Positions 841-57,390 of a stretch of 64,000 bases of DNA are shown here, in pieces (position 1 is the first letter of the stretch; each line of letters begins with the position of its first letter). Under the pieces are notes generated by a model. The model did not search any database, was not told the origin of the DNA, and was given only the letters and a program-made list of their open reading frames with translations. The stretch is from Moniliella sp. 'wahieum' (Eukaryota): the NCBI GenBank assembly GCA_003971905.1, contig RSEE01000048.1, positions 62,001 to 126,000 of the forward strand, given 5' to 3'. The translations under genes and the position numbers were made by a program.

Positions 841-3800
841 TCCCCCCTGGCGAGGCCCACCCCGTGACACAAACAGTATATCATAGACAAGGGGGAAAGC
901 ATGATGGACATCATGATCACGGAGATGCGGGGTAGTGGAGCTTGGAAACTTTATTATATAGGCGTGTAAGCTTGAACCTTGAAGTCTGAAGATAAGCTGG
1001 GAAAGGTCGCGGGTCACTTCTCACAACGAAGAGATGATCACTCATGATCGACAAGAATATAGCGCGCAAGCTCTATCGTATATCATCTCACTAACCAGCA
1101 CTACTAAGTACTAAAGGTCTATCCTTTCCGAGAAGAAGGTGGAAATGGCTCCGTCACGTCTTATCACAGACAGTGCTTCCCTCATGGTGTACGGATTGCT
1201 CGTATATACAAATGGGCCTCCGGGGCTCCGCACGTTTGCTGAGTGCGATAGAGACATATGGGACGTGTGAGGAGCTAGATTACATTTGCTTGGCAGAACG
1301 TCATGCAGTTCGCCTCAACATGATAGCTCCCTCAGGCCTCATGAATGAGCCGCGTGGGCTTTATGCGTGCGGGCCTGGGTGCTGACCAGCGATGAGCCTA
1401 AGCGCTGCGACGCAACGAAGACGATGCTGCAAGTATCCATGCATGAAGTGTATTCCCGTCAGAGACGAGGTATCTGCGTTTTCAGCCCGTGGCGGTCGCT
1501 ACTACCGCCTGCAGCTCGATGCGAAAACTGATTTTTGGCCGTTCCCTACTATACACCTGCCATGTTTTTTTCCACAATTCTCCGTGTCTACACTTCAAAT
1601 CGCCACAGCCGGTTAGCCCAGCCTCCGAGACGGGATATCGCGTTCACACCCCGTGGCTGTTCCTATGAACGCCTACAGCCCGTTCCGAACGCTGTGATTT
1701 GGCGGTCCCCTATAGAAACAGGGTGCGGCACTTGTCCTCTTTTTTTGGGAACTGCGTTTTTGCACTCCCGCCGCAGATGAGTTTGGCTTAAGTTGTTGGA
1801 CTCAGCTGAGACGCTGCGGGGGATCGCCTCTCCCATATTTCTGGACGGGAACGTACACGTCAGCTGCTCAAAGTGCTTCCGGAAGGATATGAACTACATC
1901 TTTACCCTTTCGACCGTCCTCGGCGAAATAATTCTTCGACTATTTCTCTCTGCACCCCTGCAGACTGAGGCTGGCGGGGTTTTGGTAGAACAGCATATAT
2001 ATCAGGACATGGTTTTGGGGAAGGAATACCACTCTTCTAATTGAGCCGAGAACAAGAGGCGAGTGTTAAGGGGCGGGCCATCACCTCCTCCGATAAAGAG
2101 TCCTGCATTTGGCAGAACTCGATCTGACCCCAATCCACACCATCCGTCGTGATAGACAAATAGTGCGTCAGAGAGAGTCGGCGGGCACCTTATCGATGCT
2201 GCCCATATCCTCCACGGCTGCCCATGGTCGCCAACAATCGAAGATACAATGCTTATTAGTATACTCGTATTGCCCATATCATCATATTGACAGAATCCAT
2301 TGTCTACTGTACCCGACTCTTGCGAATCGTCTGCGCCGTTGAAAGGATGGGCTGGGTTTTAGCTGTTACCCGCTGTAGGGCTCCTATGTCCTGCTTTTAT
2401 ACCTGTCCTGATCTCTTCAGTATATTCACAGCCCTATCTAGTAGGGTTTTTGTATATAGCTCTGTTGTGTGGTCCTCATCGGCCAATCTGTTTCCTATCG
2501 ACCACAACCTGTCATCGACAGACCATATGCGTTTCCACCAATTAACCCTGGCTTACAGACCTTGGTCGTTTATCCCATTTATACCTTTCACCCTTGGCTT
2601 CTCTGTTACCTCACCTTGTCGCGGTAGCACTTCAAGGCGTGTGATGATTATACATCAGGGCGCTCTTGACCTTTACATTTACTTTGGGTTTGGTTTCTAT
2701 CCGCATAATCCCGCGTTGATGGTGGTAACGGTAAGGCAGCAGCAGCATTACTACCCCGGAGTTCCTGGACCCTTTAATTCATCTGGTTTTACCGGGGATG
2801 CGCACGTGGCTCCGCCGTCGGAGACTCTGATCAGCGCTCAGCAGGCTTCGCAGGGGCTTCGCCGGAAAGCACACAGAATCTATGGTGGGTCTCTTTTTCC
2901 CCTCTACACCCGGTTGGTTCTGTTACTGAATCTGAACCCGAGCACATGCCATGCGTGACTCTCATTGACCGTCCAAAAGAGTTTATACACCTATACACAA
3001 AAGTGACGGCCTTCTATCAGCTCCCTCCCCATCGCCACTCTGAACGTGGTTAGGGGCATGGGTGCGATGAACCATAGTTTCCGAAACTAACATCATGCAT
3101 GAACTAATTGCTTTTTGGTCGTGGTGGCCATACAACCTTACAAATACCACTACTAATGGATCGAGGAGTTCCAAGCTTGGCTGTAAAGACATGTGACCGT
3201 TTGATGAACCACATATCTCATCGCGCGTGAGCGACTTGATCATTCAAGCTAGTGAAGAAGAGTGTCGCTATATCTGTGGAGATTTCTCTTGCATTTATTC
3301 GCTGGCCGCGATAGCCAGATGGGCTAGGGAGGCTCATAAATAGACTGTTACTTGTAGTAGGAAAAACGATCTGTGGAAAATGGTTCAAGTGGGAATCAAA
3401 TCTCATACACAAAACTCCGCAGCCACGCGCTGCTGCACCTGAGCGGCTGATCTCCCTCTCTCACCGGTCACCGGCCACCTGTCACATGTCGCGTGCCACA
3501 GATAACGTGCAACGTTCAACGTTCAACGTTCACACGTTCACAGTTCATGTAGTTGAAGTTCAACGTTCAGATTCAGATCTCAGACGTTCATCGATCAGCG
3601 GTTACCGGTCACCGACCACCGACCATCAGCGACCATCGACCACCACATTATGGCCGCAAGCACAGTAATTCAGCTTTCAGTCGCTGAGGCCTGAGGGCCT
3701 GAGGCGTAGTAGGACGCAGCGCTCACATGTTGCCGAGATCTGAACGCGAGGCTGATCCGGGTATTCTGTGTAGCCAACGTGCGGCAGCGTGCGGCTACAA

Positions 3801-6800
3801 GCCGCTTGACGCGTAACGCGTAACGTCTTCTATGGCGCAACATTTATTGGCTGACTTTACTGGACCAGGCTCAATTGAACGTCAACGCGTCAACGTTCAA
3901 CCTACGTACATTCAACACTGGTCCAACCTGGCCCAATCCGATCTCAGAACTTAAGAGACCTTTGCCATAAAAGCTAACGGAAGGCAAAAACGGGTACGCG
4001 TGATCGATGATCGATGTGATCCATATCCCATTCCGATCCGAAAAAGTACACGGTGACCGGTGAGCGCGGTGAGCGGTGGTCTTTGATTGATCTTAGAATA
4101 GATCTTCCTTCTTCTTGGCAGGCCTTGGCCTAGATCGAAGGCGTTAGCCATTATTAGCGCTTGGCGCTAAGCTTAGCGTTATAGCTGGGCCAGCATGTCA
4201 GAGCCACTCCCGCCTATACTCCCCCACACTGTGGGTGTTGGCCTCTGCAGTCAACCTCTTTTGTTGCTTGATCCTGACATAATGCAAAACATGCAACACA
4301 GGCGAGCTTGGCATGCGTGGAATGTATACTCCCGAGGGAAGGCGGGAATGGGAGTACCACACCGGGTAAACCGTGGACCCCTCTCACAAGCATCGTTGGC
4401 TTCCCAATATCGCGAACCAGGATGATTCAATGATAGCAAGGTGTCGCCCACAGAGATTACGCGATTATTACGCATTGTGCACAGGATTGCGCTCACATGC
4501 TGCTCACGTGTGTACTATCGTGTGCCCCGCCGCAGTTGTGGAGTTCGGACCACACATCGCTTCTGGACCCCACAATCCCCCCCCTCACAGATTGATGAGC
4601 TGGGTGGCCGGTGGCAACAGAGATATAGGACCAACATAGGAAGCGGGCCACAGTAAACGTAAACGTTAAACTCAGATGCTTATTGGAGCACAGGTGTGGT
4701 ATATAGGACGGTTGTGTGCGACTCATGGAGAGGCAATCGACTATCCCGACTATAGGCTGATCGTGGGAAGGGCGCATGTGGGGGAGGAGCAAAAGACGAC
4801 GACTTTTGGTCCAATGCCACATGTCACAGATCTCAAAGGGAACTATCTGAGAAACTCATCGATAAGTAATCGATATTCATTAATCATTGACTTTTGAACA
4901 CACTGTGACCGAAACTCTACACCATATATCGCTTCCATACCATGGTATACCTGTGCGTGGCGGGCCGGTTCCACCACTTCTGCCCCTGCTTTGCTCGCTG
5001 CCCAAAATACCACGATGCTGGCTGTACAGGATCACGTTTATAGACCAGTAATCAATGAATCAATCTATTAATGCTTGAATTTGAAATTTGATTGATGATC
5101 GGGTGCCGGCGCCCCTGGCTGCGTCATCGATATATGGAGGACAAGGGTACTGAGACACACAGTCCTCGATCCTCAGTGTTATTATACTCGACGCCAATCT
5201 TATAGGATCTAATCGATGAGCCTGAGAGGCATCGACGCACAATGAGAGAGACACCCTGTGGCCTGTTCGATGATCGATGGCCGTGGACTGGTGACTAGTT
5301 TGTCGAAGTAGGAAAACAAGTACACTAAGTACCAACATTGAATATTGATATTGAGCTTGAGCGCTGGGCGGCTGAGCGGAGTGCTGAGCTGAGGCGCCGG
5401 CTGAGGCTGGTGACCGGTGACCGGTGAGCACTGAGCGCGCTGAGCCTCAGCGCTCAGGCTGAACAGCGATCAGTGGCCTCAGGGTGCGGTGCTGTGCCCA
5501 AAGCTCGAAGCCTTTAAGCCTGTGGCCTGCCGGCCCCGAGCGTCCGCGGCAGACGGCAGACCACAAGCTACCACAACAGACCACCCCGGACACCCATGTC
5601 CCCAGACCCCAGACTCCAGACCCTTGGTGTTTCGCCTTGGGTTTGGGACGGGTCCCCTGCCCTCTGTGGCCACATGCATACCTGGCACCAGCGCAGTGCC
5701 ACCAGCTGGGGCCAGAGTGCAGTCCACGACATCTGAGATCGGAATCAGGAATTTGAACGCAGCCGAAGGCGACCCCACGCCGAAGTCGGTGACATGTGCC
5801 ATTGTGAAGCCTATGCGCTTATGAAGCTTGGAGTACCGCATATCACAGCACATGTCGGCGCCAGCCATTAATGTCAGCCGAGTGTTGCGTCGCTTGAAGG
5901 GCTGGTACTCGCTAAGCGCTGGGGCATGCAACGTGTATCCATCCCATTTCTCACGGCTTGAAGGCGCATGCGGGGTTGAACGTTGAACGTTCGTTGAGCG
6001 TATGCTGGGTACTTTTTGAGCCCAGAGTAGGAGTACCGAGTCTCGTCTTCGTGACTGCGATACGAGTACTGAGGCTCAGGACGGAGTACTCACTGAGTAC
6101 TGAGTACGTTGAGACGTTGAGTGCAAATGAGTTCGGTCTTGAAGCTGCAAGAACGTTCAAGCGTGAGAATATTGGGGCCTCCCTTTTGATGAGGCCCTGA
6201 AGAGTGCGCTTGAGAAATTGCCAGTCCGGGGCCTGTGGCCAGAGTAACTCAGACTGAGTACTGAGACTCTGAGGAAGACCCCTGCGGCTCAGCACTTCCT
6301 AGAGTGGCATGTCGCAGTCCCTAAAATCACTAACCACTAGCTCCACCGGCCATGTCACTAGCGCCAGTCATTAAGTCATTATTCGTCACGAGTCACTGAG
6401 TACTGGCCAGTGAAGATAGTGAAGTCACTATTAGCTAGCCGCTGTGTACACGTACACCGGTGGCGGTCGGCCTGCACAGCAAGACATCCTCGCCCGCTGC
6501 TGCGCTGGTGCCTGCTGCGGCTGGGTGCCTTGCAGCCACTGGCAAATGGCGGCTAGCACCTGGCAGCTGGCCAGCGAACATGCGTGCGCACTACGTACAG
6601 CGCGCACCGTCCCGCGGAACACCCGGCTGATGCCCCAGAGCGGGTACGCAATAGGTAGGGTCGCTTGGCTGCACCCTACCCCACCCACACTGGTGCCGTG
6701 CCTCCCTCCCCCCCCAGCAATTTGCCAGACAGCCCTGCCGTCTGGGTGCTCCTAGCAGCGCATATCTTCCAGCCCTCTCTGTGGCCAATAAAACCGCTGA

Positions 6801-9762: not shown

Positions 9763-11113
9763 GCCGTTGATGATGGATCAGGTTGAACATGACTCAGGCT
9801 GAGCCCGTCAGGGTCAGTTTGGCCTGCTCGTCATTTCCATTTCCCTTCATCGATGATCTCATCTCTCATCTCTCATCAACCACGGATTGTTCTTTTCTAC
9901 CGTGTTCACCGAGTTTTCTTTGTCGAGCACGGTTCCTTTCCATCGGCCTGGAACAGCAGAGGCACTATTCTTATCAAGCCCTCTGTTATGCCTGTGGCCT
10001 TGACCTTGTACGCTTATTTTGATGTCCGCAACTGTATTGTTTTTTTTTTCTTTTCGTCTTGGCCCCACCGCTGTGGCTCCTTGCTCTTCGGTGTGGGTCT
10101 TCCCCCTTGTCCCGGCTTGCATTATCGCTTTTTGCCTCCCAACTCTCGATCGTGATGTTCATGAAGCTTTGCTGCGTAGGCGGCACGGCTTACGCGGCAC
10201 GGCTGAGTACGACTGCATTTGCTTTCAATCTTATGAGCCTTGTCTCTTTTGTCTTTTGCTTTTTCTCTTGCCTATCTCTATCGCATCTCGTTCCTCGTCT
10301 CCCAAAACAAGCATTGCGCCCGATCAAATTTTCGTTGTCTATGCAATAAAAAATCATAGCATGTACAAAGAATCGCTGCGCTTAGCAGGGTTGCGCATTC
10401 GGCGTGCATGTGCTGCGTTTTTGCTCGTGCAAGCCCAAAATTAGGGGACCTAGTGAAGTCGCCACCAGGTCGGGCCCTCTGGTTCTATCCCGTCACCCGC
10501 TTCCATAGGATGTGTGGCGCGCCGTGGATTCAAAGATTGAGCGTGGTTTAGCATGTTCGAGCGATGAATCGGTGAACCACCTCCCCCGTAAAATGACTCT
10601 TCAGATCGTCTTCAGTAAAGGTTTGCCACAGTTACTCATTATCTCTTTTGTTGACCGTCTTTTGGTGGCGTATAGGACCCGCGTGTCGTCATGCAATGAC
10701 CGCATGACCAGGTGGCAAAACGATTCCGGTGGAACGAACTTGACATGGTTGCTTTGATGATTTCCGACTTGAGTCTATGCTCCATGGAGCTATAGAAGGA
10801 GAGTGCATGATGCATGACGCGTGACGGTCACTTGGTTACATGTCACGCGTCACGCGTCTCGGTGAGAGGTGAGCCGGTGACATGTGACACAACTTGCTGG
10901 ACTGCGTCTCACATGACGTGCATGATGCGTGATGCACGATGCATGATGTGGCTGCTCACCGTTCCCCATCGCTGAGCCAGAAGCCACACTGGTTGTGCCA
11001 TCCTGCATCCACGCACAGACCAAGAAAACTGGGGATCGGGACGATAATCAGTCCTGGTATACAAGTGTTTGGTTAGGCCTTATGCCTTAGGTCTTGGTTA
11101 AATTGCAGCCTTA

Positions 11114-11454
11114 TCTCTAGGTAATAAAATAGGTTGGTTGCCCTGCACTTTTTACCTCAGCTGCCCCGTGACACGTTCCCAGCCACCCGCAGCCAGAGTA
11201 TCGGTGATATTATTTGCCCTCTCCAGCGTGGAAGGGTTCCAGCGTGGAACGGTAGCGACGGTGGAACGGTGGCTAAGGTGGCGAAGGGGACCGGTGGCTA
11301 AGGTGGCGATGGTGGGCCGGGGGACGTGGCTAAGGTGGCGACGGGGGAACGGTGGCTAAGGTGGCGAAGGGGAACGGTGGCTAAGGTGGCGACGCAGCAC
11401 CATGCTGGGGCGAAGCCCCAGCCGACCGGGCCGTAGGCCCGGTGGTCCTCCTCG
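11114..11454 (+). mobile_element. Non-autonomous Helitron, family 1 (copy A)
   Basis: 5' A|TCTCTAGGTAATAAAA; five GTGGCTAAGGTGGCGA subterminal repeats; hairpins CTGGGGC-GAA-GCCCCAG and CCGGGCC-GTA-GGCCCGG; ends CTCG|T. The 3' part is homologous to the copies at 12795, 13416 and 61700. Confidence 0.75.
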
Positions 11455-11466
11455 TTATCATTATTA

Positions 11467-12792
11467 TCCTTTAGTTCCATATACGAGTACCCATCAAAAT
11501 CCGCCCAACCCTACTGCTCCTTGCCTGCACGTGACGGGGGGGAGGCTTGCTGCGCCAGCTGGCTAATAATCCTTTAGTTCCATATACGAGTACCCATCAA
11601 AATCCGCCAACAACCTACTGCTCCCTTGCCTGCACGTGACGGGGGGAGGCTTGCTGCGCCAGCTGGCTAATAATCGGGCATATCACACCTAAATGACACC
11701 TAAGTCGCGTCGACGCCTCCCTCCACTACCTTACAATGCCCCCCACCCGTGCTCACTGGCGGTGCCCCCCTTGCCGCACCAACGACCACACTCGAGCACA
11801 GTGTGCCTTCAATCCGCGCCGAGAGTTGTGCCGCCACTGCCGGCGCCATGGCCACAGGGCTGCCGACTCCCCACAATGCTTATTTTCGAAGACGGATGAC
11901 CACCCGACGCGTCTCTGACTGGCTCAAAGAGGGGCGGTGGTGCAAATAGTAACCGAGGCACAAGGCGGAGTGGTCGAGAGCAATTGAGGGGGGTGGGGGC
12001 AGGGGGGACAAGAAGGGGATCGGTGGACATGGGAGGGGATGGAGCAAGGATGATCGGTGAATGGCGGGCTCGATCCTTACCCTGGGCCCTGCCAGGAGGC
12101 TCCCTCACCCAGGTTGATGGGGTGCAATCCCTTAGGTGGAGTACTCACGGTAGTTTCAGGTTTGGGCTATTTGGTGGCGAATCCGAGGCGGCTGTACGCT
12201 GCCAAGGCTGCGTATGCGCCGGCTTGGGGTATAACGTGTCTGAAGCGTCCGGGGCTTAGGACGGGTAGGTGCAGTGGAGGGAAAACACTGCCAGGCTGAA
12301 GCTGGGAAGGGGCCGCCGTCGACGTTAGCTGTGAAAGGAACCCACGCGATATGCTGTGGTAGGGGGAATCGCCACGCCACTGAAGGAAAGTTCGCGGCGA
12401 CTGGGCGGATGAGGTTGGATGATGAATAGGGCAGCTAAGTGGAGACGAGAGGTTGCCTGTATTACTCAATCAATTGGCTGGAAACGGTCAGGAGTTGGAC
12501 AAGAAATGTGGGGAAGGGACGAGAATGGAAGGTGGGATTAAAGGAGGATGCTGATTTTGGATGACCGGTGACCCCTGAGGCCTGATGCATGTGATGAGAG
12601 AGAGAAGGGAGATGAAGCGAGCAGGTGCGTGCGCGCCTGCGAGCGGAACTCTTCGCCCGGCTAAGTGAGCGTCACCGATCTACCGAGGGCCGTGCAGGGA
12701 ACCCCAGCATTAGGCACTACTCTCCAACAGAAGCAAGCGAAGGCTGCGAAGGCTGCGAAGCAATAAGAGTATCTTCCGATAGCACTTCCTCG
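11467..12792 (+). mobile_element. Helitron-like element, family 2 (copy B), with tandem-duplicated 5' end and zinc-knuckle ORF remnant
   Basis: Homologous in inverted orientation to 15502-16585. Homology begins exactly at A|TC (TCCTTTAGTTCCATAT vs TCTTCTATTACCATAT) and ends at CACTTCCTCG|T. No TIR or TSD. 3' hairpin only imperfect. Confidence 0.65.
11736..11918 (+). pseudogene. Zinc-knuckle (CX2CX4HX4C) ORF remnant inside family-2 element
   Basis: MPPTRAHWRCPPCRTNDHTRAQC..CRHC; the inverted copy reads MPPARAH-RCPHCRTNDHTGTRCPFNPRPRLCPHC with one frameshift. Confidence 0.6.
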
Positions 12793-13062
12793 TATCTCTA
12801 TACCATACAGAAATACCAACCTACTGGCGTGCCAAGTGTACCACTTCTGCACCAACAGTTTAGGTCAGCATCGCGTAAGCCCCCCGGTGGCGCAGCCACC
12901 GGCCACCGCCAGCCACCAGCAAGCATCGGTATATTATTTTGTCTCTCCAGCGTGGAAGGGTTCCAGCCTGGAACGGTGACCGGTGGAACGTGGCTACGGT
13001 GGCGATGGTGGACCGGGGGAACGGTGGCTACGGTGGCGAAGCGGGAACGGTGGCTAAGGTGG

Positions 13063-13207
13063 TGTGAGAAGGCACAGCCCGGGGGAAAGTGAGGAAAAGA
13101 AGAGACTCGAATGGGATTCGAACCCTGTCATCGCCTATTGGCCAGGGATGCGTTACCACTACGTTATCGAGCGGGGATAAGAGCAGCTGCAGGATCACAG
13201 TCTAACA
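13063..13207. mobile_element. 145-bp solo LTR (TRIM-like) containing a tRNA-like sequence
   Basis: Begins TGTGAGA and ends TCTAACA (6/7 inverted match); flanked by GTGG direct repeats (13059-62, 13208-11). Copy A shows the empty site AAGGTGGCGACGCAGC. Confidence 0.7.
13104..13172 (-). pseudogene. tRNA-derived sequence (degenerate, possibly Gly-GCC) with A and B boxes
   Basis: Minus strand GCTCGATAACGTAGTGGTAACGCATCCCTGGCCAATAGGCGATGACAGGGTTCGAATCCCATTCGAGTC: A-box-like TAACGTAGTGG, B box GGTTCGAATCC, acceptor pairing GCTCGA/TCGAGT, TTTT just downstream. Anticodon loop non-canonical. Confidence 0.7.
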
Positions 13208-13415
13208 GTGGAGACGCAGCATCAAGCTGGGGCGAAGCCCCAGCTGACCGGGCCGTAGGCCCGGTGGTCTCCTCGTTATCATTTACAGAGTTTGTGTACG
13301 TACGCGCTTACGGCTGGGACAAAGAGACGCCTGAATAAACCGATCTCCTGGTTCAGTACGTCCATGTTCACCGGTCACCCATCTCCAATTGTTAATTGTC
13401 CAATATACAAACCCA

Positions 13416-14594: not shown

Positions 14595-15501
14595 TTGAAT
14601 ATTGGTCTTGAAGAGCTTGGTGTCGATGATATTCGTAGATGAAAATGATTCGATGATGCATGATGTAATGCATGATGTGACATGTCACTGTGACATGCGA
14701 ATACTCAGGCTCAGGCGCTCAGGCGCTCAGGCCTTCAGGTGTACTCGATCAGGTACCCTGTCAGTACTCAGTGTACTCAGTACTGACTCTGATATTGATA
14801 TCCAGTCTGAGATCTGACACGACACTGTGCATGACGCATGACGCATGACGAATGATGCATGATGATGATCGATGATCTAGCGTCTAACGTTTAACGTTTA
14901 TCCGATTCATCTCGATATATCGAACAGGATTGCGCTCAGCGATGGCTACAGTGCTCGATCCTCCCCTACGTGTGACATGTGAGCACCCATTGATCGATCA
15001 TCGATCATCGATCATGCATTATTTTTTGCGTCAATGTGTGACATGGGTAACTCTGTACTGAGACTCAATACTGATACTGAACTCAGTACACGGATGTACT
15101 CAGTGAGTACTTAACGTTCAACGTTAACGTTTAACCCTCCAAATACCTAGTACCTGAGATGACGGGGCACCTTTTGCCGTCTCTTCTCGAGACTGAAATG
15201 CAAAAACAGCTGGTATCTCTCCGTTGCTTTCAATAAGCTTCAAGCTCATCGAGTTGATCTTAAATCTTATTACGAGTCTTCCAGTTTCCTCCCTCCAATC
15301 TGCTATGTTACCCTACGGCTGAGATACCCGCGGATCGGAGGAGGATAATCGATAACCGCAAAAGCATAATGCCCCCCACGCCGAGGATCCAACGGAACAA
15401 TTGATGTTGGATGTTTTCCTGCGGGGCCGGCGATATCAGGCCAATACCAGCGGTGGAGCATCTCGCCATAATGAATCTCTCAGACCTCAACATATGTGGT
15501 A

Positions 15502-16585
15502 CGAGGAAGTGCTATCGGATGACACTCTTAGTGCCTTCGCAGCCTTCGCTTGCTTCTATTGGAGGGTAGTGCTGGGTTTCCCTGCACGGCCCTCGGTGGA
15601 TCGGTGACGCTCACTTAGCCAGGCGGAAGGTTCCGCTCGCAGGGGCTACGCCCTGCTCGCTTCATCTCCCTTCTCTCTCCTGTCTCCTTCCCTTCATTCA
15701 GATGTGCTTGAAGACTTGTGGCTCACCACTTTGCCTTCACGCCTTGTCTGAAGGCTGCTTTGCAGCTGACCCATAGGATCGCGAACGCTCCCAAGTCGCA
15801 CTCTATAACTTCGTCTAATTCGCTCTGTCAACATCTATGCCAGTGCGATGGGGCTTAGACAGAAGGGGGGGTTACCAAAAAGGGGCCAACCAACAGTCAG
15901 CATCCTCGATTAGTGGGGATCCTTTATCCCACCTTCCATTCTCGTCGTTTCCCGCCTTCCTCCAGCATTTTCATGTGCCCAATCGCGCGAGCCTTTTCCT
16001 TCAGCCGCGTCGGTTCCCCGTACCATAGCATGTCGCGTGGATTCCTTTCACAGCCACTGCCCTGCCTCAGCCCTGGCAGTGTCTGTCCGCTCCACTGCAT
16101 CTACCCGTCTCTTCAGCCCCGGAGGCTTCAGACACGTTACTACCCTTCAGCCGGCGTATACGCAGCTTGCACCGCGGCAGCCGCCTCGGCTTCACGTCCA
16201 AAGGCTTCTCCCCCTCGCTCGGATCCTCCAAGTAGCCCAAGCCCGAAACTACCGTGAGTCGTCCTTCACCTAAGGGATTGTCACAGGTCGTCGTAATCAC
16301 GTACATGGATCGAGCCCTCGACGGCAGTGGGGCACAACCGTGGGCGTGGATTGAAGGGGCACCGTGTGCCAGTGTGGTCGTTGGTGCGGCAATGGGGGCA
16401 CCGCGGTGAGCACGGGCAGGGGGCATTTTAAGGGATGGAGGGAGCGTCGACGCGAACTCTGTCATATGCCCGATGGTTGGCGCAGCCCCCTCCGTCACGT
16501 GCAGGTGGGGAGCAGTAGGGGTTCAGTCGGGGGGCAGTAGAGTTGTTGGCGGATTTCTTTGCTCCTGCCATATGGTAATAGAAGA
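15502..16585 (-). mobile_element. Helitron-like element, family 2 (copy C)
   Basis: Inverted homologue of 11467-12792 with A|TC 5' end and CTCG|T 3' end; retains the zinc-knuckle remnant at about 16320-16427. Confidence 0.65.
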
Positions 16586-25100: not shown

Positions 25101-25325
25101 GCTTCACGATGCACGTCTTGCATGGCTGCTTGCCGTCGCACTTGGACTTGCGCGCACGGCAGAAGAGACACGCCGCCTTGACGGGAGGGGCAGCGTGGCG
25201 TGGGCAGGCGGAGAGGCACTGGAGGCTGGTGGGCTTCTTCTCTTCGTCCTCAAGCTTGATGCGCTTGGCAGAAGGGTCGTCGGGAGCCGACAGGGGGGCG
25301 AGGGGGGAGGAGGGGGCGAGGACAT
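22181..25325 (-). CDS. Zn(II)2Cys6 fungal transcription factor
   Basis: ACLFCRARKSKCDGKQPCKTCIVKHQECIY cluster; middle homology region (LQALAVLAIYEYGSG..KRIWW); Q/S-rich linkers; several frameshifts. Confidence 0.9.
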
Positions 25326-25804
25326 GGAGGAGATGGTGGTTGGTGGCCAGGCCACCGCCAGCGGAGGGGCGTGAGCGTGAGCCTGCCTCGGCCGGCCTAG
25401 CGGCATTGCAGGGCCTTGCGGGCATTTCCTGGCATGCTCGAGCGTCGCAGCAAGCTGCAAGGTTGACGTCAAGCGTCATCGATCATCGATCATCGCGTCA
25501 TCAGTGAGTCACTCGGCCGCACTTTTCTAGCAGTCATCGTCACCGGTGAGGCTCACCGCTGCGCCATCATGCATCATTCATGCATCATGCATCATCAGGC
25601 TGCAGTACCAGGCTGCGCTTTGGCCCTCTGTCCTCCTGTGCACCCCTCGGCCCCTCCAATAAGCCGCGGAATTGGCGGCCAGGCCCGAGGCGGAATGGAG
25701 CTCAGCTCATCCACAGCGCCGCCTGCGCCGCCCACACCGCCCAGGCCGGCACGTGGGACAGCCGGCGGCGCACAGCCGCCCCGCCCCACCACCTCCGGCC
25801 GCCG

Positions 25805-35267: not shown

Positions 35268-35952
35268 GGCGGAATGAGAGAGACGCAAGAGGAAGAAGAG
35301 GAGGAGAGAGGGGGGAGGGGGAGGAAGCAGACTAGGAGGTGGTGGTGGCAGCGGAGAAGGAGGCGCGTTCTGTCTGGGTTCCTGCGCTCTTGGCCTGCCT
35401 GCGCCCACCGGTGGTCCCATGGAGTTGAAAGCAGCGCAATGCCAGGCCAGAACATGCCAGCCATACGCGTTTGAAACGTTCATCTCCGATGTCTGCAGAT
35501 CGCATCCCTGCCGGCGCCACTTTTGGCGACTGCGCACCAGTCGGGCCGTCACGCGTCACGAGTCACGTCCCTAGCTCAGCTATGGGGTTGGTCCGGTGGA
35601 ACGCATCGCCATTCATCCTTGCACTTATGTGGGGGAAAAAGATGGTGGGAAAACACAAGTATATGGTATCCTGGGATAAGAGAAAGATGGAGCCAAAGCG
35701 ATCCGGGGAACTGGGGGCAAGAAGATTCTGGGCCGCAAAAACAGATGAGATGGTTGGTCCGGTAAGACAGAGATATTATGCGGTTTATCCCTCTCCATTA
35801 TTCGCGTGCACCACAAATACACACGAGGGACAGCGCATAGTGAGGACCACACAAGATGGTCCAAAGGAGTGGTAAGGACAGAGAGAGAATGGCATGGACA
35901 AGCCAAACGGAAGTGAGGGTGGGAGGATGGGTTCGCCATCAGTGGTATGAAT

Positions 35953-42262: not shown

Positions 42263-44547
42263 GGCTAGGTGGCGGAGGCGGGGCTGGAGGGGGGGCTGAG
42301 CGTGGGGGGATGATGGGGATGGAGATGGGGATGGGGATGGTGGTGGCCACGCAGCCGTAGCCAGGCGAGGCTGGGCAGGTGCGCTGTCCGCCTTCAAGCT
42401 TCGAGCTTCAAGCGGCAGCGCCCACGAAGGCAGCGCGCCACGCCGCGGCAGCACGCAATGACTGCCCCCGTGCTGGCCCCGCCACCGCCCCCGGGTGTCT
42501 GCGCGTGCCGCACAGCGCCAGTCTCCGTCCGATATAGCATCGCATATCACCGTCTATCACGCCCCATCACTCGGTCACTGGGTCACATGTCAGATGTCAC
42601 GCGTCACGCGTCACGAGGCACGAATCACTCACTAGCCACTAGTTTCGCTCACTAACACTAGCCACGAGTCACTGTCACATGTCACAGTCCAAGTTAATAC
42701 TCGTTACCTCGAGTGAGGCTCTCCCAGTGTCAGACGCATCAGATTTTCAGGTGTTAGCGCACTTGGGCTTACTAGCAGGCCGTGGGCCTTGAGTCAAAAC
42801 AAAGATCCCATACCATGCTGCCGCGACGCTGCCTTGGCACATCTATGTCCAAAGGATGTACCCCCCCCCCTTCTCCACCGTCACTAGTCACTGGCCACAC
42901 GGCTGTGCTCTACCTATACTGGACCGACTCGTGTGGGGGGGGGGTGAAAACATTTCCCCTATTCCAAGACTTCCGAGAATATAAGAGCCTCTATCATAGG
43001 CCTTTGCATGGTATCTGTGGGTTCGCTGACGGAACACAGAGGTGAGGGCGAAGAACAGGCATCGGCAACGGACATATTTCCACATCATCTATAGTCTGTA
43101 TACACCGTAGATAGATCGGGAAAGTGCGGGTGTTTATTGTCTCGTCTCTATCTCCTCGAGTGTGTGCACATCTACATGTCATCGTTCCAAACCATTTAGG
43201 AAGAGAGAAGCTCTTCACCTAGGGCAGCAAGCTGCTCAGCCTCGGCCGCGTCATTTCGCCCTGCAGAGCTTCTCTTCTTTCCCCCCCCCGCTCCTATGCA
43301 TTTCCACCGCTATACAGGCCTCAATATAGTCACTCTACGGCCGTCAGTGGACCATATCGTTCTCGACGCCCCCTCGTCCTCCGTATAGCACATTGTATAC
43401 TGGCCCATGTCACTACTGATTGCAGCACCTCCATGCCCCAGTGACGCACCGTTGTGTGCTTAATTCCTCACTTTCGTCCATGACTCTGAAGGAACTTATC
43501 TTGACTCTTTTCTCAGACTTTGATCCGTGGAAGTAGTCTGGTTACTATCGCACAGTATATATCACCTTCTCTCCATCTTGGCCACAGTTCATTGGCTTCT
43601 TCACTCCTTCGTGAATCCGCACCACTATATACAGGCAAAACATTATAATAGTTGCTACATCTGCTCTGCGCCTTCTCGCCTCTCATTCTTCCACCTCTCT
43701 TCCTCAGATTCAGATTGCAGGCCCTCTTCAGTGTTTCGGCTGTCTGGAATCCTCGATGTGTGGAGCTTTCAATTGAAGTCTTCACGCGTCTCACAGCTTC
43801 AATCCGTAGTACAGTTTCCGCTTATTCTCTCTGGCAGTCTAATAAAGTTCGGTCTCCAGTTTGTCCCCCCCGTTTTGATTTGCCTTTTGTCCGTCCTCGA
43901 GCTCCTTCCGACCCGTTGCTACTACCCATGCCGGTATCTACGCAGCCTATAATATCCAGGCTTAGTTGGGAGACTGAATCAAGTAGGGAAAAAGAAAGGT
44001 TTGCGGCTTCGCAAGACTGTTGCGCGCTTTCAGGCAATTTGCCCCCAAGCATGGCACTGGAACCCACTGAAGACGTGCGATTGAGGCCGGCCTGGCGGAG
44101 TGCGCAGCAGGACTGCCTCCTCCATCTGTTTCCGCCCTCACAGGCGGAACCACATTACCAAACCGCTTACGTGGATAAGTTTAGCACGCTTTGCAGACGC
44201 GCCACTCACCACAACCTCAGTCCTTCAGTGGCAGCCCAACTAAGACGGGGCGCACAACAGAAAACCACATTCCCAAAGTACAGCCATTACAGCTGTCTCC
44301 GCGTAGCTGCTGCTAGCGCCGTAGCCACCGGATTTGTACCGCCGTCGTCATGTGAACACAGTTAATTTATTTATCCCATTATTAACCTACCCTCTCTCAT
44401 CCTTGCCTGTCCGACCTTCTCAATTCTCCTTCACTACAAAGCATGCTGTACCAATAGAAGTGCAATTCCTGAACAACATATGCTGCGCTACAATTCCATG
44501 CAATCTACATGCTTTGCTTCCAACTGCTCTTATACAGTGCAGATACC

Positions 44548-47644: not shown

Positions 47645-49243
47645 GGTTGGTGATGGTGGCGATGAAGCTAGTGAAGCTTGAAGGTGGTCTGAGGTACTAG
47701 TGAAATTTGCAAGCACCGCGTGACGTCACCGCTAATTATTGGTCAGCACTGTATTTCCGCTCGTTGAACGTTGAGCCATTCAAGTCGTTCGCCTCTATCT
47801 TCCCTTACCCAAATGACACGGCGGGAAAAGCTGGTGAAGACATCGAGGAAGGAACCGCTGCCAGTTCCCGATGGCTCCTTAACTAATTAAGCGGCCTTGC
47901 TTCAACTCCGGTCTGATGGCGAGAGATGATGCTATGTCACTATTACAAAGCAGTTTGACATATTTGGCCACGGGAAGGCAAACGAGTATAGGCCACAAGG
48001 CCCTCGGCCCTCCCTCTACTCGCTCACCAGTCACTGCGATCAAGACTTTTTGTTAACTATGTTTCTACTTCTAGCAGCGGAAGGACACACGAGGAACACC
48101 ACGTTCACTCACTAGACGCGCGCATGACGGCAGCGGAAGCACCCAAAAACATGGGCTGCGTCCGTCCATTTTGCACCACCATTATGTATCGTCACTTCCA
48201 CGTTTTCACTCACATGTTGTTCAGTGAAGTACTGTGACTATTGCTCTTTCAGCAGCCAACACGACCATAGGCTACAAAGCTTGACGGAAACAATCTGGCT
48301 TGAGAAGAAATGTGCGAACCATTACGATGTGGGGCTGTGGCAAGCGTCATTAAGAAGTCCCCCTATTACAGAGGTATAGTCAGCCCAAAAGCTTCTCATA
48401 GAAGGTTATACCGGTAGTGGGGTTCCGTGCTTGGTGGAGCATAACATTCCTTGTTTCAGGAGCTAGAGTATACAACCACCATTTTGCCATTCGGGCGAAA
48501 GCATGTTAATGTCCGTGTCGGGCTTGGGGCGGGGAGAAGTCTTACTCCTATCAGCCATACCACAGCTTGGATTTAGTTGCGCCCTTTCCACAACCGAGGA
48601 GTACGCCCAGTAAGTGGCTAACTGCCGCCTCCTCCGTGGGTCGATCCCAGGGATTCCGAAGGGAAACGGGCAGCGCGGGAGTGGACGACTCACTCGTCGC
48701 CCGTCGACTATAGAGAGAGAGGAACGACTCGCATCGTCCCGATAACTTGCCTGGGGCCATTCGTGAAGTAGGACAAAAAATGTGTTGCGGCTTCTTGCTA
48801 GCTGTCCACCTCTTCCTCCAGTGCAAAGTTCTGCCTGCTGCGGAAGACTTGGCGCCGGTCGTCGTAGCAACTGGACACAAGCTAAAAATTGCCAGATGCC
48901 ATGCCAGGTAGGGACGGGGTCAAGGTGGGGGTTCTTGCAGAGGTTGAAAAAGAAGGTTGCGATGCACGGAGTGAGGGTGGGGGAGGTCCTGCGGGTGTGC
49001 TTCACCAAGGCCGAAAAGCGTCAGAGTGCCGGAGGAAGAGGATTAATGATGCCGATGAGGCATGATGGATGATGCATGATGATCATGCCTGAAGCCCTGA
49101 AGCTTGACGGCCTGAACGTCAGAACGCCTGTGGGGGCATCAGCCCGAAAGTGTTACATTTCAACTTCAAGTGGGTGATCATTTCCACGTCAGAGTGGTTG
49201 GCTGCGTCTGCACCACCACCATCTCGTCCCGCTCTGTGCTTCC

Positions 49244-51563: not shown

Positions 51564-52139
51564 GGTGGCGATGCGAGTGTGGTGGTGGGGCAGTGATCCG
51601 AGAGTGCCTTGAGCTCAGGCTGAGGCCAGGCCAGTTCCAAGCGCGACGCCAACGGAGCAACGTGGAGTCGGGGTGCTGCTTAGGTAACCTCGGGGGACAG
51701 TTGGCGACCGCTTCAAACAGGCGCGCAGCAAACCGCGAGCGAGGTTGGCGCAGCAGCGGAAATGCGCCATTCCGCCACTAGCTCCCCTGTTCATCGACGA
51801 GACGGCACACCCCCACCCAAATGGCCCAGCAGGAAAGGGTTTAGGCCCTGGGAGGCTAGAGCCACCATGCCCATCTGTGTCTCTCCCCCATAGCCGTGAG
51901 AGCAGCAACGAAGAACTAGGCCATGGTGTCGCCAGCTAGCCTGCGCCTTTGCGCACAGGGGCAAAGCCCTCAATTTTGCGCAAGTACAATAGCAGACGTT
52001 TGGTCAGTGGCGTGTGTTGAGGTGAAAATGGACGGTCTCATAAAGTGGTTATATCGACAAAAACACTGAACACATCTATGACGAGATGCCCTTCGGCCTG
52101 TACATGTCGCCTCAATGGAATCGACAAACGCAAGCAATA

Positions 52140-52788: not shown

Positions 52789-55700
52789 TTTCCGACAGCC
52801 AGAAAAGAAAGACGGAAGGACTTGAGGCGCGATGTTTGCACGCAGGTTGGCAGTAGTGCTTCGATGCGTCTACTACCACCGACGATATCGTTGTGGCGGT
52901 AGCTACAGTGTTTTTGTGGTCGCGGGTGCTGCACAGCGCAGGAACGTTGGTAGCGGGAGAGGTGACGATCAAAACAGGATGTGCGCGTAGGTGGCGATGT
53001 TATCAAGAGGGCTTGTCAGCTGATTACGCCACGACGGTCGCGGTTCGAAAATAACGCCAAAACATACAACACAGGCGATACCCCGCTACCTACCTATATG
53101 CCTGTTGCACCGTGGCTGCTGTGAGTGGGGCACTGCCCTAGTTAGAGGTTAGACTGGGCTGCGCGGCGCTCCACCTTGGTAAGCCCTTGCGTAGTAGACA
53201 CCGCTTGGCGCATTCCTCTGTTCTACTTACCCCCCACTTTCGCTCAACCCGTCACCTCGTCCTCGCCATCTGCTTCTGGTAGCTCAGACCGCGCCGACTG
53301 CCTGACGTATAGTGCGTCGCTTACACCCCTCTTACTCCATGCCATTGGAGCATGATGCATGATGCATGACCGCGAAAGCGATAATAGCCCTCCTAATAGA
53401 GATTCAAATGTTAATAACATGCGTCATGTATGCGCCCCCTCTCCTCCCCTCCCCAAGCCTTCTGAGGTCTCGGGGTAGCGTTGTGTAGAGTTAGGACTCA
53501 GTTAAGATGCCCCTACTACTATTGGGTTGGGTCATGACTGTAGTAACTGTTGGAGTTGGGATTCTTCCATGATTCTTCCATCGTTTTTTATAAAAGTCCG
53601 GCCACACACCTTTACAGTACAGTGTACTGACCTGGCCGAACAAAACGGACACGACAACGCCCGCACGAGGCTGATTTGAGGCGATCAACTCTCATGCGTT
53701 GATTGGCAGTTTCCGGTGCGACCTGACCGCAGGCCCCTAGCTGAACTAGTGATGATCTCGAATATAACTGGCTTGTCTAATTTCTCTCCTCACCATCTTG
53801 TCATATACGAATGGTTATACATCACGATCTCATGGGAAGGTATCGGGAGGGCGTGTGGTAGAGTTCTTTTGATGAAGACTTAGTTCTCTCTGCCCCCCTC
53901 TCAATAATGCGGGGGAGCGATCGCTTGTGGAGATGAGTTGATTTACGCTGCGCCAGTTCTCCAAAGGCGCTAGCATCGTTGAGATGCAGTTGAACCTCGT
54001 CATACGGCCTCAACGCACTCTCGCCTCCATCATACTGTGGGACCCGGCGTATTGTACGGATGCATAGTCGAGCTCATGGGATCTGCAACGAGGGAAAAGG
54101 ATGATGTATATCTGAGAGGTTCAGCCCGTTCAGCAACCACGCTCTCCCTACTCTGACGTTCGCCAATCTGACACTTCTTCACAACCGGACGCCGCCGCGT
54201 GCCATCAGATCCATGCAAAAAACTGTCTTAATGGTTTCGCCCCGTGCATCTCCTTTCACTGGAACCGTGGTGTTCCGGGGGCGGTACAGTTTTCTCGGTG
54301 TATATAGAGCCCCGCATTGCGTATGCCTCTGATCGAAATACACTTCACACTACTACTGTTAAGCTAGTGGGGGAGAATCAGTGGGTGATTTGAATCCATT
54401 CTGCGCGAATCCTTTGCGGACGGCCATCACATGGTATAGCACGGGAACACTGCGATCCATTTTGTATACAGGACCCAACAGTCTTGATGGAGACCTCTTA
54501 GTCTGCTGTGAAAACAGCCTGTGGGCAGCAGTATAAAATGCTCCTACCTCCTGTTGGTATATACCTTTCTTGATCTCTTCAGGACGATATATATACGCAG
54601 CCCTCTCTAAGGATTGTTCTGGTTATAGTCTTGGTCGCGCACCCTGTGTTTCCTACCGACCGACAAAAGCTTGTCCAACATCAGTCAGTGACACGTCCAC
54701 CTTCTTCCTTTGATCGCCCTCTCTTCGAATTCTTCACTCTCTCTCACTCACATGAATCGAAAATTAGCCGTCTGTTATTATACACTTCAGACCGTCGACA
54801 CCTGAAGTAGCAGCACTTATCGCCTTTTTCAATTACATGAGCAGCTCCCCCACAGTACGACTATTACAGCGGCAATCATGGTAACAGTATGGCCATTATG
54901 GACTCCTTCAAGGAGCCGTGGCCAACGTACACGTTGGTCCGTTTTCGTAGGCCATGAGGTGCTGCTGCGCAGACACAGACCCCAAACTAATAATATAGAA
55001 GGTGTCTTTTCCTCCGTCAGGCTCTATGCACTCGCTCGGCTTTTCGGGTGGGATCTGAAGCAAAAGGTATACTGTGCGTGACTCCGATTGGCCGTCCAAG
55101 ACTTTATATATACCCCCGGCCTAAACTGTAGGATAACGTCTCCCGTCTCCGTCCCCGCCCCTTTTTTTTTGGGGGGGGGAGGGCAGTGATAACCCCACCA
55201 CCGTGGGTTGCCTTTTACAACTGATGGGACATCATTGATAGCATCCCTCTCCAGCAAACCCAATGTTCGATGAGGTCGATGAGGCGGTCCTTCCTTCACC
55301 CCTTTCTGCTCTTCCATTTTGCAGAGCGTTGAGGGTCAACTTTTTGGAGAATCGAATCTGTGGGCTGCGGGGTAGTTGGACGCCGGTGACGCCAGTGACT
55401 GTATACCGCTTTTGGCGGCGCCATCACCTGCATCACCATCACCAAAGTTAGAAAACGGAGACGAACGTGCAACACCATTAGCTGTGATGAGACCTTGGAT
55501 CGGAACAGGCCGGCATATAAGAAAGTATGAACAGATGTTGCCCCCATTGCGGCACCTCATCAGCTCCAGTCTTGTATTACTCGCGTTGAATCAGGTCCGG
55601 GACGCTCCAGCAAGTCTAAGATCTAAAATGGTCCAACCTCGAGGCACCTGCCACATGTTCTCTTTAACGATCTGGCTTTGAGGGTTAGGGGAAATATACT

Positions 55701-55815
55701 AGTACAGCGAGCAGATAGATCGATGGTGGAGGGTAGGCGATGCGGGCTTCTGGTGATACATGGGACACGTGTTATGAGTAGTTCTCCACAGGGGATTGCC
55801 ATCGGCCTTAATCCT

Positions 55816-56070
55816 AGAGTACGACTCGGGAGCACTCGACGATCCTATATGGATCAGCTACAAGGAAGCTTTCAGACAAGGCGTCAATACAAATTGGTGA
55901 GCCACCAGTCTTCAAGCAACGTCTGAAGGAAGTGGCACGTGACAGGAGGGACGGGAGATGATCGATGAAGCGAGGATCAGGGGGTGCGCGCGGAACTCTT
56001 CCGCCAGGCTAGGCGAGCGTCACCGATCAACTGAGGGCCGTGGTGCAGGGGGACCCTAGCACACTACCCT
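55816..56070 (+). mobile_element. Degenerate internal fragment of the family-2 element
   Basis: Aligns by eye to the reverse complement of about 15560-15805 (TTCAGACAAGGCGT..GGTGAGCCAC.AGTCTTCAAGCA; GAGCGTCACCGATC..GAGGGCCGTG). Confidence 0.75.
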
Positions 56071-56312
56071 GTATCACTTAGGCCTTCGGAGAAATATTCG
56101 CTCCCACAGATTTCGAGCGACTGGAATCCCATGGAGGATGAAGTGGAAACCACATCATCAAAGACGGTTTTTAACAAACCACCACAACGATCGGTGTTCG
56201 TTTGCGATGTCGGCGTCTAAAAGAGGGCGTCCAACGTCCAACTCCAACGTCCAACGCACAACGTTTTCTCAGATGTCAGATGCCAGATGCCAGAGATAGT
56301 CAACGTCTCCAC

Positions 56313-56363
56313 GATGTCAGCGTCTCAAAGATGTCAGCGTCTCAAAGATGTCAGCGTCTCAAC
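56313..56363. repeat. 17-bp tandem repeat GATGTCAGCGTCTCAAA x3
   Basis: Units at 56313, 56330 and 56347, plus a degenerate unit upstream. Confidence 0.9.
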
Positions 56364-57390
56364 GATCTCAACGTGTGTCCAACTGAGGTGCATTTGACAG
56401 GTGCCAGGAGAAGCTATTTTTTACTGCGCGTGTGTTTTGATTAAGGGTCCTGTGGAGGAAAAAGAGTCCTGCCGCAGCGCAGCGCGCTTGGGTGGTTGCG
56501 TGGCATGGGCGGAGTGCGTTGGGTGCCGGGGAAGCAATGCGCGCTCCGATGTGCTGACCGCACGGCAGAACCACTCGAACCCCTTTTTAAGGGCCTACTA
56601 TATAAGGCCTAAGACCTAAGGCCTTTTACTTGATTACGGGTCTACTATGCGCGCAATGCACAATGGATAGCCGGCTGCGGGTGGGGTGGGTGGGTGTTGG
56701 CCACTGGTACACTGCCGGATGTGCTTGGGGCCCGAGCCGGACGAAGCGACTGGTGACTGGTGACCGGTGACCGGTGAGTACAAGTAGATTGAGTTGAATT
56801 CGGACATCTGGGTGGGAACTTTTGGGCTCAGCCTCGCGCTGAGGCAGCGCTGCGCCACAGTGCCGACGAGTGTGCCAGGGCAGTGCCCGGCAGTGCCTCG
56901 CACTGGCTCGGCGCAACAGCAGAGGCGCTGCTGCGCTCTGCGGCGCCCCTGTCCCTGCGTCAGGCACTTGGCAGCGGCAGCAGCCAGCGCTGCGTATGGT
57001 GCGTATGGCGCGTATGCCTGCGGTGCTTTGGTGTGCGCCGCCCGCCTCCTTTTCTCAGAACGGGGTTCTGCGTTCTGCCAGGCGAGCATCCCATGTGGTG
57101 CAGCCGTCGCACCCACCACGGAGTACTGATGCATGACGCGCCTGCATCCGGCCGCTGTGCACTCCCAAGGCCAACGCCTCGGCAGCGCTAAGATCCCCGA
57201 TCTAAGATCCTAAGCCCTAACCGCCGGTACCCGGAAGCGCTCCCACCGTGTCACCGGCATCACCGCATCACCGGCGGTGCTGTGCATCCCGCAGCATTGA
57301 TTCTGCCCGCCGGGAATTGGCCATCGTCCCCCTCCCCTCCCCCTCCTCCTCTCCCTCCCCCCCTCCTTCTCCTCTGCCGCTGGTCTGGAC

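Follow-up and report, generated by a model that had tools for sequence, protein, structure and literature searches.

Seven-base T-N-A repeat units in fungal intergenic DNA as possible scars of a targeted break and its repair

The canonical footprint of Tc1/Sleeping Beauty transposons reads TA-C(A/T)G-TA, while elements of the PIF/Harbinger superfamily make a 3-bp TWA duplication that lies within a longer odd palindrome, and their excision is mostly precise. The transposases of hAT and Transib, RAG1 and a MULE transposase are described as forming hairpins on the flanking DNA, which are then opened by host enzymes such as Artemis (PMC5499845). For Ac/Ds in Candida albicans, PMC5873905 describes footprints with either palindromic (P) nucleotide insertions or short deletions, in two predominant forms; the same source reports that yeast Pso2 cleaves hairpins, and gives for hAT elements an 8-bp duplication and palindromes centred on the complement of the base bordering the element. 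Transib is presented in PMC1131882 as the only eukaryotic DNA-transposon superfamily with 5-bp duplications, with soybean rust as its sole known fungal host at that time, and the targets quoted there (CASTG, CAWTG) are GC-rich and symmetric. Here we analyse a single 64-kb window, i.e., the whole stretch of Moniliella sp. 'wahieum' contig RSEE01000048.1 from position 62,001 to 126,000, and describe in it short arrays with a 7-bp period, referred to as heptads, which are built on the three-base sequence T-N-A. The window is fungal nuclear DNA of about 56% G+C with introns present, and every result given below is drawn from this window alone.

An initial annotation of the window had pointed out tracts in which TGA recurs every 7 bp around a variable, self-complementary tetramer. 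All 11 examples that it quoted were recovered (at 4001, 5411, 56761, 5977, 6094, 10843, 42597, 53353, 14678, and 14991). At period 7 there are 41 exact tandem duplications (two or more copies), for which our own estimate of the chance count is about 3; the counts for periods 8 and 9 are 10 and 8 respectively. Same-strand pairs (TGA followed by TGA, or TCA by TCA) occur 109 times at a spacing of 7, against 33.1±5.3 expected from 50 order-3 Markov simulations (z=14), and the excess continues at a spacing of 14 (69 versus 32.6) with a further echo at 21. The core is palindromic in 58 of the 109 TGA-N4-TGA instances on both strands (50 of 99 when counted as distinct arrays), compared with 5.9% of all tetramers in the window, and 15 of the 16 palindromic tetramers are used as core, TATA being the missing one. 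Both the excess at spacing 7 and the enrichment of palindromic cores, as first proposed, are borne out by these counts.

TGA itself turned out to be too narrow a description of the constant part, whereas the 7-bp frame holds. TAA/TTA pairs behave like TGA/TCA pairs (25 at spacing 7, against a baseline of 7.2), and the fixed element is therefore T-N-A, with N mostly G or C; TGA and TCA are one element, seen from opposite strands. The repeat unit is a 6-bp palindrome A-wxx'w'-T (primes marking complements) plus one free base. Units of the type "one base plus 6-bp palindrome" make up 21 of the 41 exact period-7 units, compared with 10.4% of heptamers that contain a palindrome of any outer pair by chance; all 21 palindromes have the A....T form, with G or C as the odd base in 19 units. 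An excess also exists for odd palindromes centred on T-S-A, S being G or C (31 versus 8.6 with arms of at least 5, and 19 versus 2.3 with arms of at least 6), and for 6-base palindromes with an outer A..T pair (289 versus 209±16). Within the window, no enrichment was found for odd palindromes centred on A-N-T, C-N-G or G-N-C, or for 6-base palindromes with the other three outer pairs. Spacers of 4 nt are palindromic in 58 of 106 same-type sites and in 11 of 29 opposite-type sites, and spacers of 2 nt and 6 nt between same-type sites showed no palindromy. Paired T-N-A sites have an unchanged N in 58 cases and a complementary N in 11, and among the 90 instances in which two T-N-A sites enclose a palindromic tetramer (TNA-pal4-TNA), the T-N-A is repeated directly with an identical N in 67.

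The minimal form of a heptad is a 12-mer, x'w'TNA-wx-x'w'TNA, in which two copies of a 5-nt direct repeat flank a 2-nt filler, and this filler is reverse-complementary to the two bases that open the repeat. The T-N-A-dependent 7-bp unit thus combines a 5-nt direct copy with a 2-nt inverted copy, without a spacer. From the 67 same-N instances we took 42 isolated sites, i.e., those with no third unit of the same core, and in 35 of them the repeat runs on for 2 or 3 nt past T-N-A on at least one side, mostly on one side only (we estimate the chance level at about 12%). The flank classes are (2,0) in 14 sites, (0,2) in 6, (1,2) in 6, (2,2) in 4, (2,1) in 2, and (3,0) in 3. Such a flank rule bears on the idea that the heptads are footprints of PIF/Harbinger-like transposons with a 3-bp T-N-A duplication, the tetramer being composed of two bases from each inverted terminus. 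This would account for the direct repeat of T-N-A with the same N around the core, and arrays of TTA-GGCC-TTA and TAA-GGCC-TAA are present, which resemble the TWA duplications and GG...CC termini of that superfamily. However, families with 15 different terminal dinucleotides would be needed, the match of the core to two bases outside T-N-A (the 35 of 42 isolated sites) would go unexplained, and no such element was found in the window; we regard this origin as very improbable.

The same structure separates the heptads from ordinary microsatellites. In that explanation, quasi-palindromic heptamers would form nascent-strand hairpins and be expanded preferentially by slippage, which would fit the head-to-tail run of the arrays, and short tandem duplications without a palindrome are, at every period, likewise more numerous than our chance estimates. 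However, an inverted 2-nt filler cannot arise by slippage, nor could slippage start from a single T-N-A, and it explains neither the absolute requirement for T and A nor the sole favouring of period 7 with a 4-nt palindrome. The earlier judgement that ordinary slippage does not give the pattern is upheld.

How strict this requirement is can be read from 11-mers of the form U-N-rc(U)-U-N, where rc denotes the reverse complement. Counted on both strands, 88 have a U ending in T, with A as the next base in 74, and U ending in A, C, and G gives 0, 2, and 4 respectively, where simulations yield about 2 per class. The T of T-N-A is obligatory. Direct repeats of D=nnTNA separated by 2 nt occur 104 times, against 5.0 in simulations, and 74 of these 104 carry a filler that is reverse-complementary to the nn of D. 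Template switching by a polymerase at a T-N-A-specific break is the main rival to the reading that we develop below. Without any hairpin nuclease, at a T-N-A-associated break or a stalled fork, a 3' end ...TNA would anneal to a T-N-A of the same sense (through T:A and A:T pairs on either side of an N.N mismatch), copy two bases in inverted orientation and then return, either during replication or in a polymerase-theta-like templated insertion. The very uniform outcome (74 of 104 fillers obeying the rule), the scarcity of plain 5-bp duplications, the self-complementarity of T-N-A, and the enrichment of complementary-N pairs as well (11 of 29, versus about 6% by chance) speak for such a process. 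On the other hand, C-N-G, G-N-C, and A-N-T would self-pair equally well but show no events (0, 2, and 4, versus 88), and snap-back priming normally requires a loop, while the palindrome here has no spacer. We consider template switching possible but unlikely.

Fillers of 1, 3, and 4 nt also show P-like matches to the start of the right copy, in 12 of 21, 9 of 32, and 14 of 34 cases respectively, and five of the ten exact period-8 arrays, read directly, consist of T-S-A, one extra base and a palindromic tetramer. Plain 5-bp duplications containing T-N-A are not enriched in the window, with 7 loci besides one (ATCTC)13 array. This array, a perfect (ATCTC)13.6 pentanucleotide repeat at 775-842, equivalent to (TCTCA)n, is the sole long microsatellite in the window, and it could be either plain slippage or a filler-less form of the heptad process. 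The targets reconstructed from 38 one-sided events have two fixed bases and no others, namely the T at position 3 of the 5-mer and the A at position 5; N was G in 20, C in 12, A in 4, and T in 2, and 30 targets have G or C as the base 5' of the 5-mer. These sites are most simply read as a 5-nt direct repeat, and a 4-nt duplication with 3 P bases yields the identical sequence. Formally, the unit is best described as a 5-bp duplication plus 2 P bases, i.e., as a footprint-like scar.

One locus can be compared with and without the unit. In a three-way alignment of paralogues (first three rows of Table 1), the difference is exactly one 7-bp unit, consisting of a 5-nt direct repeat and the filler TC, the reverse complement of GA, and the G of TGA is kept in both copies. 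Whichever the direction, these boundaries delimit a block that is gained or lost as a whole. The two unit-less copies are the closest relatives among the three (86% versus 79%), and the indel is therefore not polarised.

Taken together, these features lead us to suggest, at about even confidence, that heptads represent neutral mutational scars, left by the repair of staggered breaks aimed at T-N-A, and are not functional sites. In each event, seven bases would be inserted at an existing T-N-A, turning ...x'w'TNA... into ...x'w'TNA-wx-x'w'TNA..., and the insertion would yield the spacer-less palindrome A-wxx'w'-T plus a second T-N-A. Such a product may come from a staggered double-strand break of about 5 bp, the T-N-A-distal end of which would become a covalently closed hairpin, be opened 2 nt off the tip and then be rejoined by end joining, with the net result of a target-site duplication plus P nucleotides and sometimes 1-2 extra bases. 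The P-nucleotide part of this reading is suggested by the spacer-less, flank-templated palindrome, a hallmark of a hairpin end opened off-centre, and the staggered break by the direct repeat across the junction, a hallmark of a filled-in staggered cut. Arrays may then grow in two ways: re-use of the same flank would lengthen a homogeneous array, and use of the other flank would create a new palindromic core while keeping the 7-bp frame. Since each scar adds a new T-N-A, further events nearby would be self-reinforcing. A transposase that makes 5-bp duplications and a host nuclease are both candidates for the putative cutter. In general terms, this agrees with a dedicated repair or template-switch process as proposed in the initial annotation, given the inverted 2-nt and direct 5-nt copies, the clean 7-bp indel and an even decay of the arrays (see below).

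Several observations weigh against such a targeted break. The filler matches the end of the left copy no more often than expected by chance, which places P-like bases at one end only, and the near-obligatory 2-nt filler makes the outcome more uniform than that of usual footprints. Junctions of hairpin-type footprints are heterogeneous, with P bases or deletions on either flank, whereas those of the heptads are one-sided and near-invariant. The inferred target nnTNA is asymmetric about the 5-bp stagger; Transib targets, in the examples quoted in PMC1131882, are symmetric about the 5-mer, whereas T-N-A lies at one end of it. For the paralogue indel, a microhomology deletion in the common ancestor of the unit-less copies is as parsimonious as an insertion. 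The simulations were trained on the window's own sequence. Pfam searches found no transposase domain in 24 of the 34 listed open reading frames (ORFs) of at least 200 aa, in 150 ORFs of 70 aa or longer between 1 and 24.2 kb, or, beyond 24.15 kb, in 106 of the 138 ORFs that reach 105 aa (the 32 left out overlapped others or had been scanned already). A k-mer scan for terminal inverted repeats with duplications of at least 5 bp gave 8 matches, none of them convincing and all explained by the arrays themselves or by glycine-repeat paralogues. Neither the Pfam scans nor the terminal-repeat scan of the window gave a Transib-like ORF or terminal repeat. It is because of these misfits, namely the lack of an element in the window, the one-sided P bases, the near-invariant outcome and the asymmetric target, that we put our confidence in a targeted break at about one half.

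Other candidate origins were rejected. Decay from a symmetric 14-mer would have to strike the four flanking positions at most sites yet spare all ten central positions, and a symmetric 7-bp duplication centred on N does not agree with just 4 two-sided (2,2) cases out of 42. A palindromic tetramer that is itself a 4-bp duplication, with T-S-A as a transposon-end remnant, conflicts with the unit-less paralogues, which have TGA and no TCGA. A hAT-type odd hairpin would complement N; cruciform resolution would also give a complementary N and requires a palindrome beforehand.

Once formed, the arrays appear to drift. Single mismatches between adjacent units are distributed over the seven positions as 3, 3, 3, 5, 3, 0, and 4, an even spread in which neither T, A nor the core looks constrained, for a sample of only 21. 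In 29 chains with three or more T-N-A sites 7 bp apart, N changes while cores stay; chain neighbours include 4 switches from one palindrome to a different one and 7 pairs that differ by one mismatch. Core switching would rarely result from point mutation, and is a direct outcome of the same rule acting on the other flank. Array length is limited, with two T-N-A sites in 62 of 74 loci, three in 10 and five, the maximum, in 2, and this shortness again argues against slippage. Single-strand folding is weak, at -5.5 to -8.7 kcal/mol: among five palindromic arrays, two are more stable than their shuffled versions (z=-3.0 and z=-2.8), as slippage through hairpins would favour, but the other three are not. 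On balance, ordinary microsatellite dynamics seem to us a distinctly unlikely source of the heptads.

The 90 TNA-pal4-TNA instances range from 1105 to 62363, and 75 of them lie outside a coding proxy that covers 48.9% of the window, a crude measure based on codon usage. Non-coding 500-bp bins have a mean of 1.55 instances and a variance of 7.29, with 25 of 44 empty, which means strong clustering. The initial annotation had spoken of window-wide arrays (3460..57280) in intergenic DNA; the instances extend beyond these limits and are roughly, not strictly, intergenic, but they are far from evenly spread. Several clusters lie between divergently oriented genes, and given rough gene models we limit our claim on location to "ORF-poor, often 5'-proximal". 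Rarity in coding sequence would also be expected from selection against 7-bp insertions, and the clustering is compatible either with positive feedback, because each event adds a T-N-A, or with regional preference. By self-BLAST and a repeat finder, the hot regions are not copies of a single dispersed element. With three TGA units or more, each reading frame of the strand that carries them contains a stop codon, as 7 is not a multiple of 3; this by-product helps to keep the hot regions free of ORFs, and it biases ORF-based definitions of "non-coding".

Location also favours the other proposal of the initial annotation, i.e., arrays that bind a multimerising TGA-half-site protein, here taken as selected promoter sites at 7-bp spacing. 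TGA is a half-site of bZIP-type motifs, and the sites do cluster in ORF-poor stretches, several of them between divergent genes. However, the cores vary over 15 of the 16 palindromic tetramers, N varies inside arrays, decay is even over all positions (n=21) with none preferentially conserved, and 25 of the 44 non-coding bins have no site at all. Half-site binding neither requires palindromic cores nor predicts the 2-nt flank rule. We therefore do not retain this proposal, which has in our view hardly any likelihood.

Table 1. Paralogue sites and heptad array loci in the window (instances are TNA-pal4-TNA)
Feature	Position	Strand	Content
Expanded paralogue site	55953..55974	+	GGGA-GATGA-TC-GATGA-AGCGAG, contains TGA-TCGA-TGA
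Unexpanded paralogue site	12607..12621	+	GGGA-GATGA-AGCGAG, single TGA
Second unexpanded paralogue site	15656..15670	-	GGGA-GATGA-AGCGAG, single TGA
Hot region 1	3461..4078		13 instances (3461-4063); (TCACCGG)2 at 3461; (AACGTTC)~5 at 3504-3547; chain TCA-TCGA-TCA-GCGG-TTA-CCGG-TCA at 3588-3611; (TGAGGCC) at 3685; (TAACGCG) at 3807-3825; period-8 CGTCAACG x2 at 3880-3895; (TGATCGA)2.3 at 4001-4016; TGACCGG at 4051-4078
Hot region 2	4660..5456		9 instances; (GGTGACC)2.7 at 5409-5427, within a TGA/TCA run split by GC-rich palindromes, 5358-5460
Array region	5975..6264		(TGAACGT)2.4 at 5975-5991; (TGAGTAC)2.3 at 6092-6107; TGA-GTAC-TGA at 6255
Period-8 variant	6106-6121		ACGTTGAG x2, i.e., TGA + 1 extra base + ACGT
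Array region	10804..11095		6 instances (10808-11082); (TCACGCG)2.4 at 10842-10858; degenerate (TGCATGA)4 at 10919-10948; (TTAGGCC)3 at 11073-11095
Core switch	10808-10824		TGA-TGCA-TGA-CGCG-TGA, palindrome to palindrome
Densest cluster	14654..15355		19 instances; full palindrome TGA-CATG-TCA at 14678; TGCATGA/TGACGCA/TGATCGA chain at 14828-14877; TAACGTT at 14885-14900; chain TGA-TCGA-TCA-TCGA-TCA-TCGA-TCA-TGCA-TTA at 14991-15021; TTA-ACGT-TCA-ACGT-TAA at 15104-15134
Cluster	25250..25597		7 instances (25250-25594); (TCATCGA)2.9 at 25476-25495; (TCATGCA) at 25565-25597; between the 5' ends of a Zn2Cys6 transcription-factor gene (-) and a synaptojanin-like gene (+)
Chain	35547..35567		TCA-CGCG-TCA-CGAG-TCA, directly upstream of a CDP-alcohol phosphatidyltransferase ORF (-)
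Array region	42392..42890		(CTTCAAG)3 at 42392-42413; (TGTCACA)2 at 42673-42686; TCA-CTAG-TCA at 42881
Chain	42583-42615		TCA-CATG-TCA-GATG-TCA-CGCG-TCA-CGCG-TCA
Cluster	42583-42890		5 instances
Region upstream of coatomer-epsilon gene	47672..49107		TGA-AGCT-TGA at 47672; TGA-ACGT-TGA at 47765; degenerate TGA chain to TGA-TGCA-TGA at 49055-49092; TGA-AGCT-TGA at 49098
Array	53350..53369	+	(TGATGCA)2.9
Array region	56603..56777	+	(TAAGGCC)3 at 56603-56624; TGA-CTGG-TGA-CCGG-TGA-CCGG-TGA at 56754-56777
Array region	57127..57275		TGA-TGCA-TGA at 57127; period-8/9 TCACCG(G)CA x2.9 at 57251-57275, directly upstream of an ORF starting near 57300

Pfam domains found among the ORFs of the window include Zn2Cys6, fungal transcription-factor, Velvet, MFS, SacI, inositol 5-phosphatase, CBM21, UTP15, RRM, SPX/EXS, L36e, coatomer epsilon, clathrin light chain, and enoyl-CoA hydratase. 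The closest named matches of the 5-phosphatase ORF are from Tilletia species (41-48% identity at 72-96% query coverage), other matches reaching 55%, and the window is accordingly taken as probably basidiomycete. An Rfam scan of the window at the gathering threshold and a tRNA scan of the window both gave 0 matches, and the heptad tracts are thus not known structured RNAs.

Other repeats also occur in the window. At 56228-56374, non-palindromic tandem repeats adjoin a hot region, namely (CGTCCAA)5, (CAGATGC)3.6, and the 17-bp AGATGTCAGCGTCTCAA x4.7, and other short duplications evidently accumulate there too. The paralogues discussed above belong to a segmental-duplication family (11150-16460, 55800-56100, and 61690-62300), which may represent either glycine-rich genes or a repeat element. 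It includes an inverted pair at 11.7-12.8 kb and 15.5-16.5 kb that is 78-86% identical, and further copies at 55.8-56.1 kb and 61.7-62.3 kb, with identity of up to 94% over 300 bp (14295-14595 versus 62003-62300). Degenerate 9/25-bp repeats (GGTGGCGAA...) occur in the duplications at 11222-11394, 12946-13062, 13476-13571, and 61768-61878, and a 104-bp tandem duplication of 95% identity (11466-11675) lies directly downstream of one glycine-repeat block. Adjoining the 9/25-bp repeats, which are of the GGTGGC type, is a twin GC-rich hairpin in four copies, at 11380-11465 (+), 13202-13287 (+), 13405-13490 (-), and 61690-61775 (-). Its stems are CTGGGGC-GAA-GCCCCAG and ACCGGGCC-GTA-GGCCCGGT, with a TTCG loop instead in one copy; the consensus folds at -31 kcal/mol, without compensatory changes and without an Rfam match. 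Within the same family, a second 7-bp paralogue indel (GCATTAG) separates 12755-12775 from 15500-15530 (-), which read CCCAGCATTAGGCACTAC and CCCAGCACTAC respectively. This indel at about 12.76 kb departs from the T-N-A rule, and the third copy differs again there, which marks the region as indel-prone.

Footprint-like scars as such are known; those described here are site-specific, near-deterministic, and iterated into arrays. A full-text literature search found no description of T-N-A heptads, which is weak evidence as its coverage lacks most subscription journals. Going one step further, and only as a doubtful possibility, this fungus may have an active T-N-A-specific cutter, belonging either to a new group of cut-and-paste transposons with an asymmetric nnTNA duplication or to the host as a (possibly domesticated) nuclease, which would repeatedly break accessible intergenic and promoter DNA and write a deterministic +7 scar. 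If so, an as yet undescribed kind of insertional mutagenesis, both site-specific and self-reinforcing, would keep rewriting promoter sequence locally and without pause. If the heptads are indeed scars of a targeted break, a sizeable part of the intergenic DNA of this fungus would be built by one simple, sequence-specific insertion rule, not by point mutation or slippage; footprint-like scars could then seed and lengthen short tandem repeats, and promoters could gain new palindromic hexamers, i.e., potential binding sites, at a high local rate. The mutational signature (T-N-A, +7, with a 5-nt direct and a 2-nt inverted copy) can be counted genome-wide and dated, and may lead to the enzyme. For annotation, a caveat is that the arrays resemble clusters of regulatory motifs but behave as neutral scars.

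How do the heptads compare with the systems already described? Like micro- and minisatellites that arise by slippage, they form short head-to-tail arrays of variable copy number. Slippage units, however, are direct copies of their neighbour, whereas in the minimal heptad 5 of the 7 bases are repeated and a 2-nt inverted filler is present at birth; slippage also acts on any motif and gives a long tail of copy numbers, in contrast to the strict T-N-A, the single favoured period, and the maximum of five sites seen here. Intergenic (AATCACG)n heptads of Ustilago maydis, to which the initial annotation refers and on which our text search found nothing, would share the 7-bp unit centred on TCA and a basidiomycete host, but their core would be fixed and non-palindromic, unlike here. 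The Tc1/Sleeping Beauty footprint is likewise a 7-bp odd palindrome with a free central base, left by repair after a symmetric enzyme cut. Its inner bases come from the fixed transposon ends and TA is duplicated, whereas in the heptads they come from the variable flank and the T-N-A pre-exists. PIF/Harbinger elements share the point of attack, a three-base site of the T-N-A type, but do not give a 7-bp insertion with flank-derived palindromes.

Closer parallels are offered by the excision footprints of hairpin-forming DDE transposons and the coding joints of V(D)J recombination, in which, as in the heptads, a direct copy of the target stands on either side of the junction and spacer-less P nucleotides are templated by the adjacent flank, with occasional extra bases. 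They differ in that the heptads come without an element in the window and their scars are iterated into arrays, a feature of which we have met no description. As described for Ac/Ds in PMC5873905, one or two predominant junction types per host are possible, which is also what the heptads show. The hAT elements covered there have an 8-bp duplication, compared with a 5-nt repeat of period 7 in the heptads, and Ac/Ds palindromes complement the bordering base, whereas the heptads keep N (58 same versus 11 complementary). If the direct repeat is read as 5 nt, the heptads agree with Transib, as characterised in PMC1131882, in having a 5-bp duplication, for which hairpins on the flanks would be expected.

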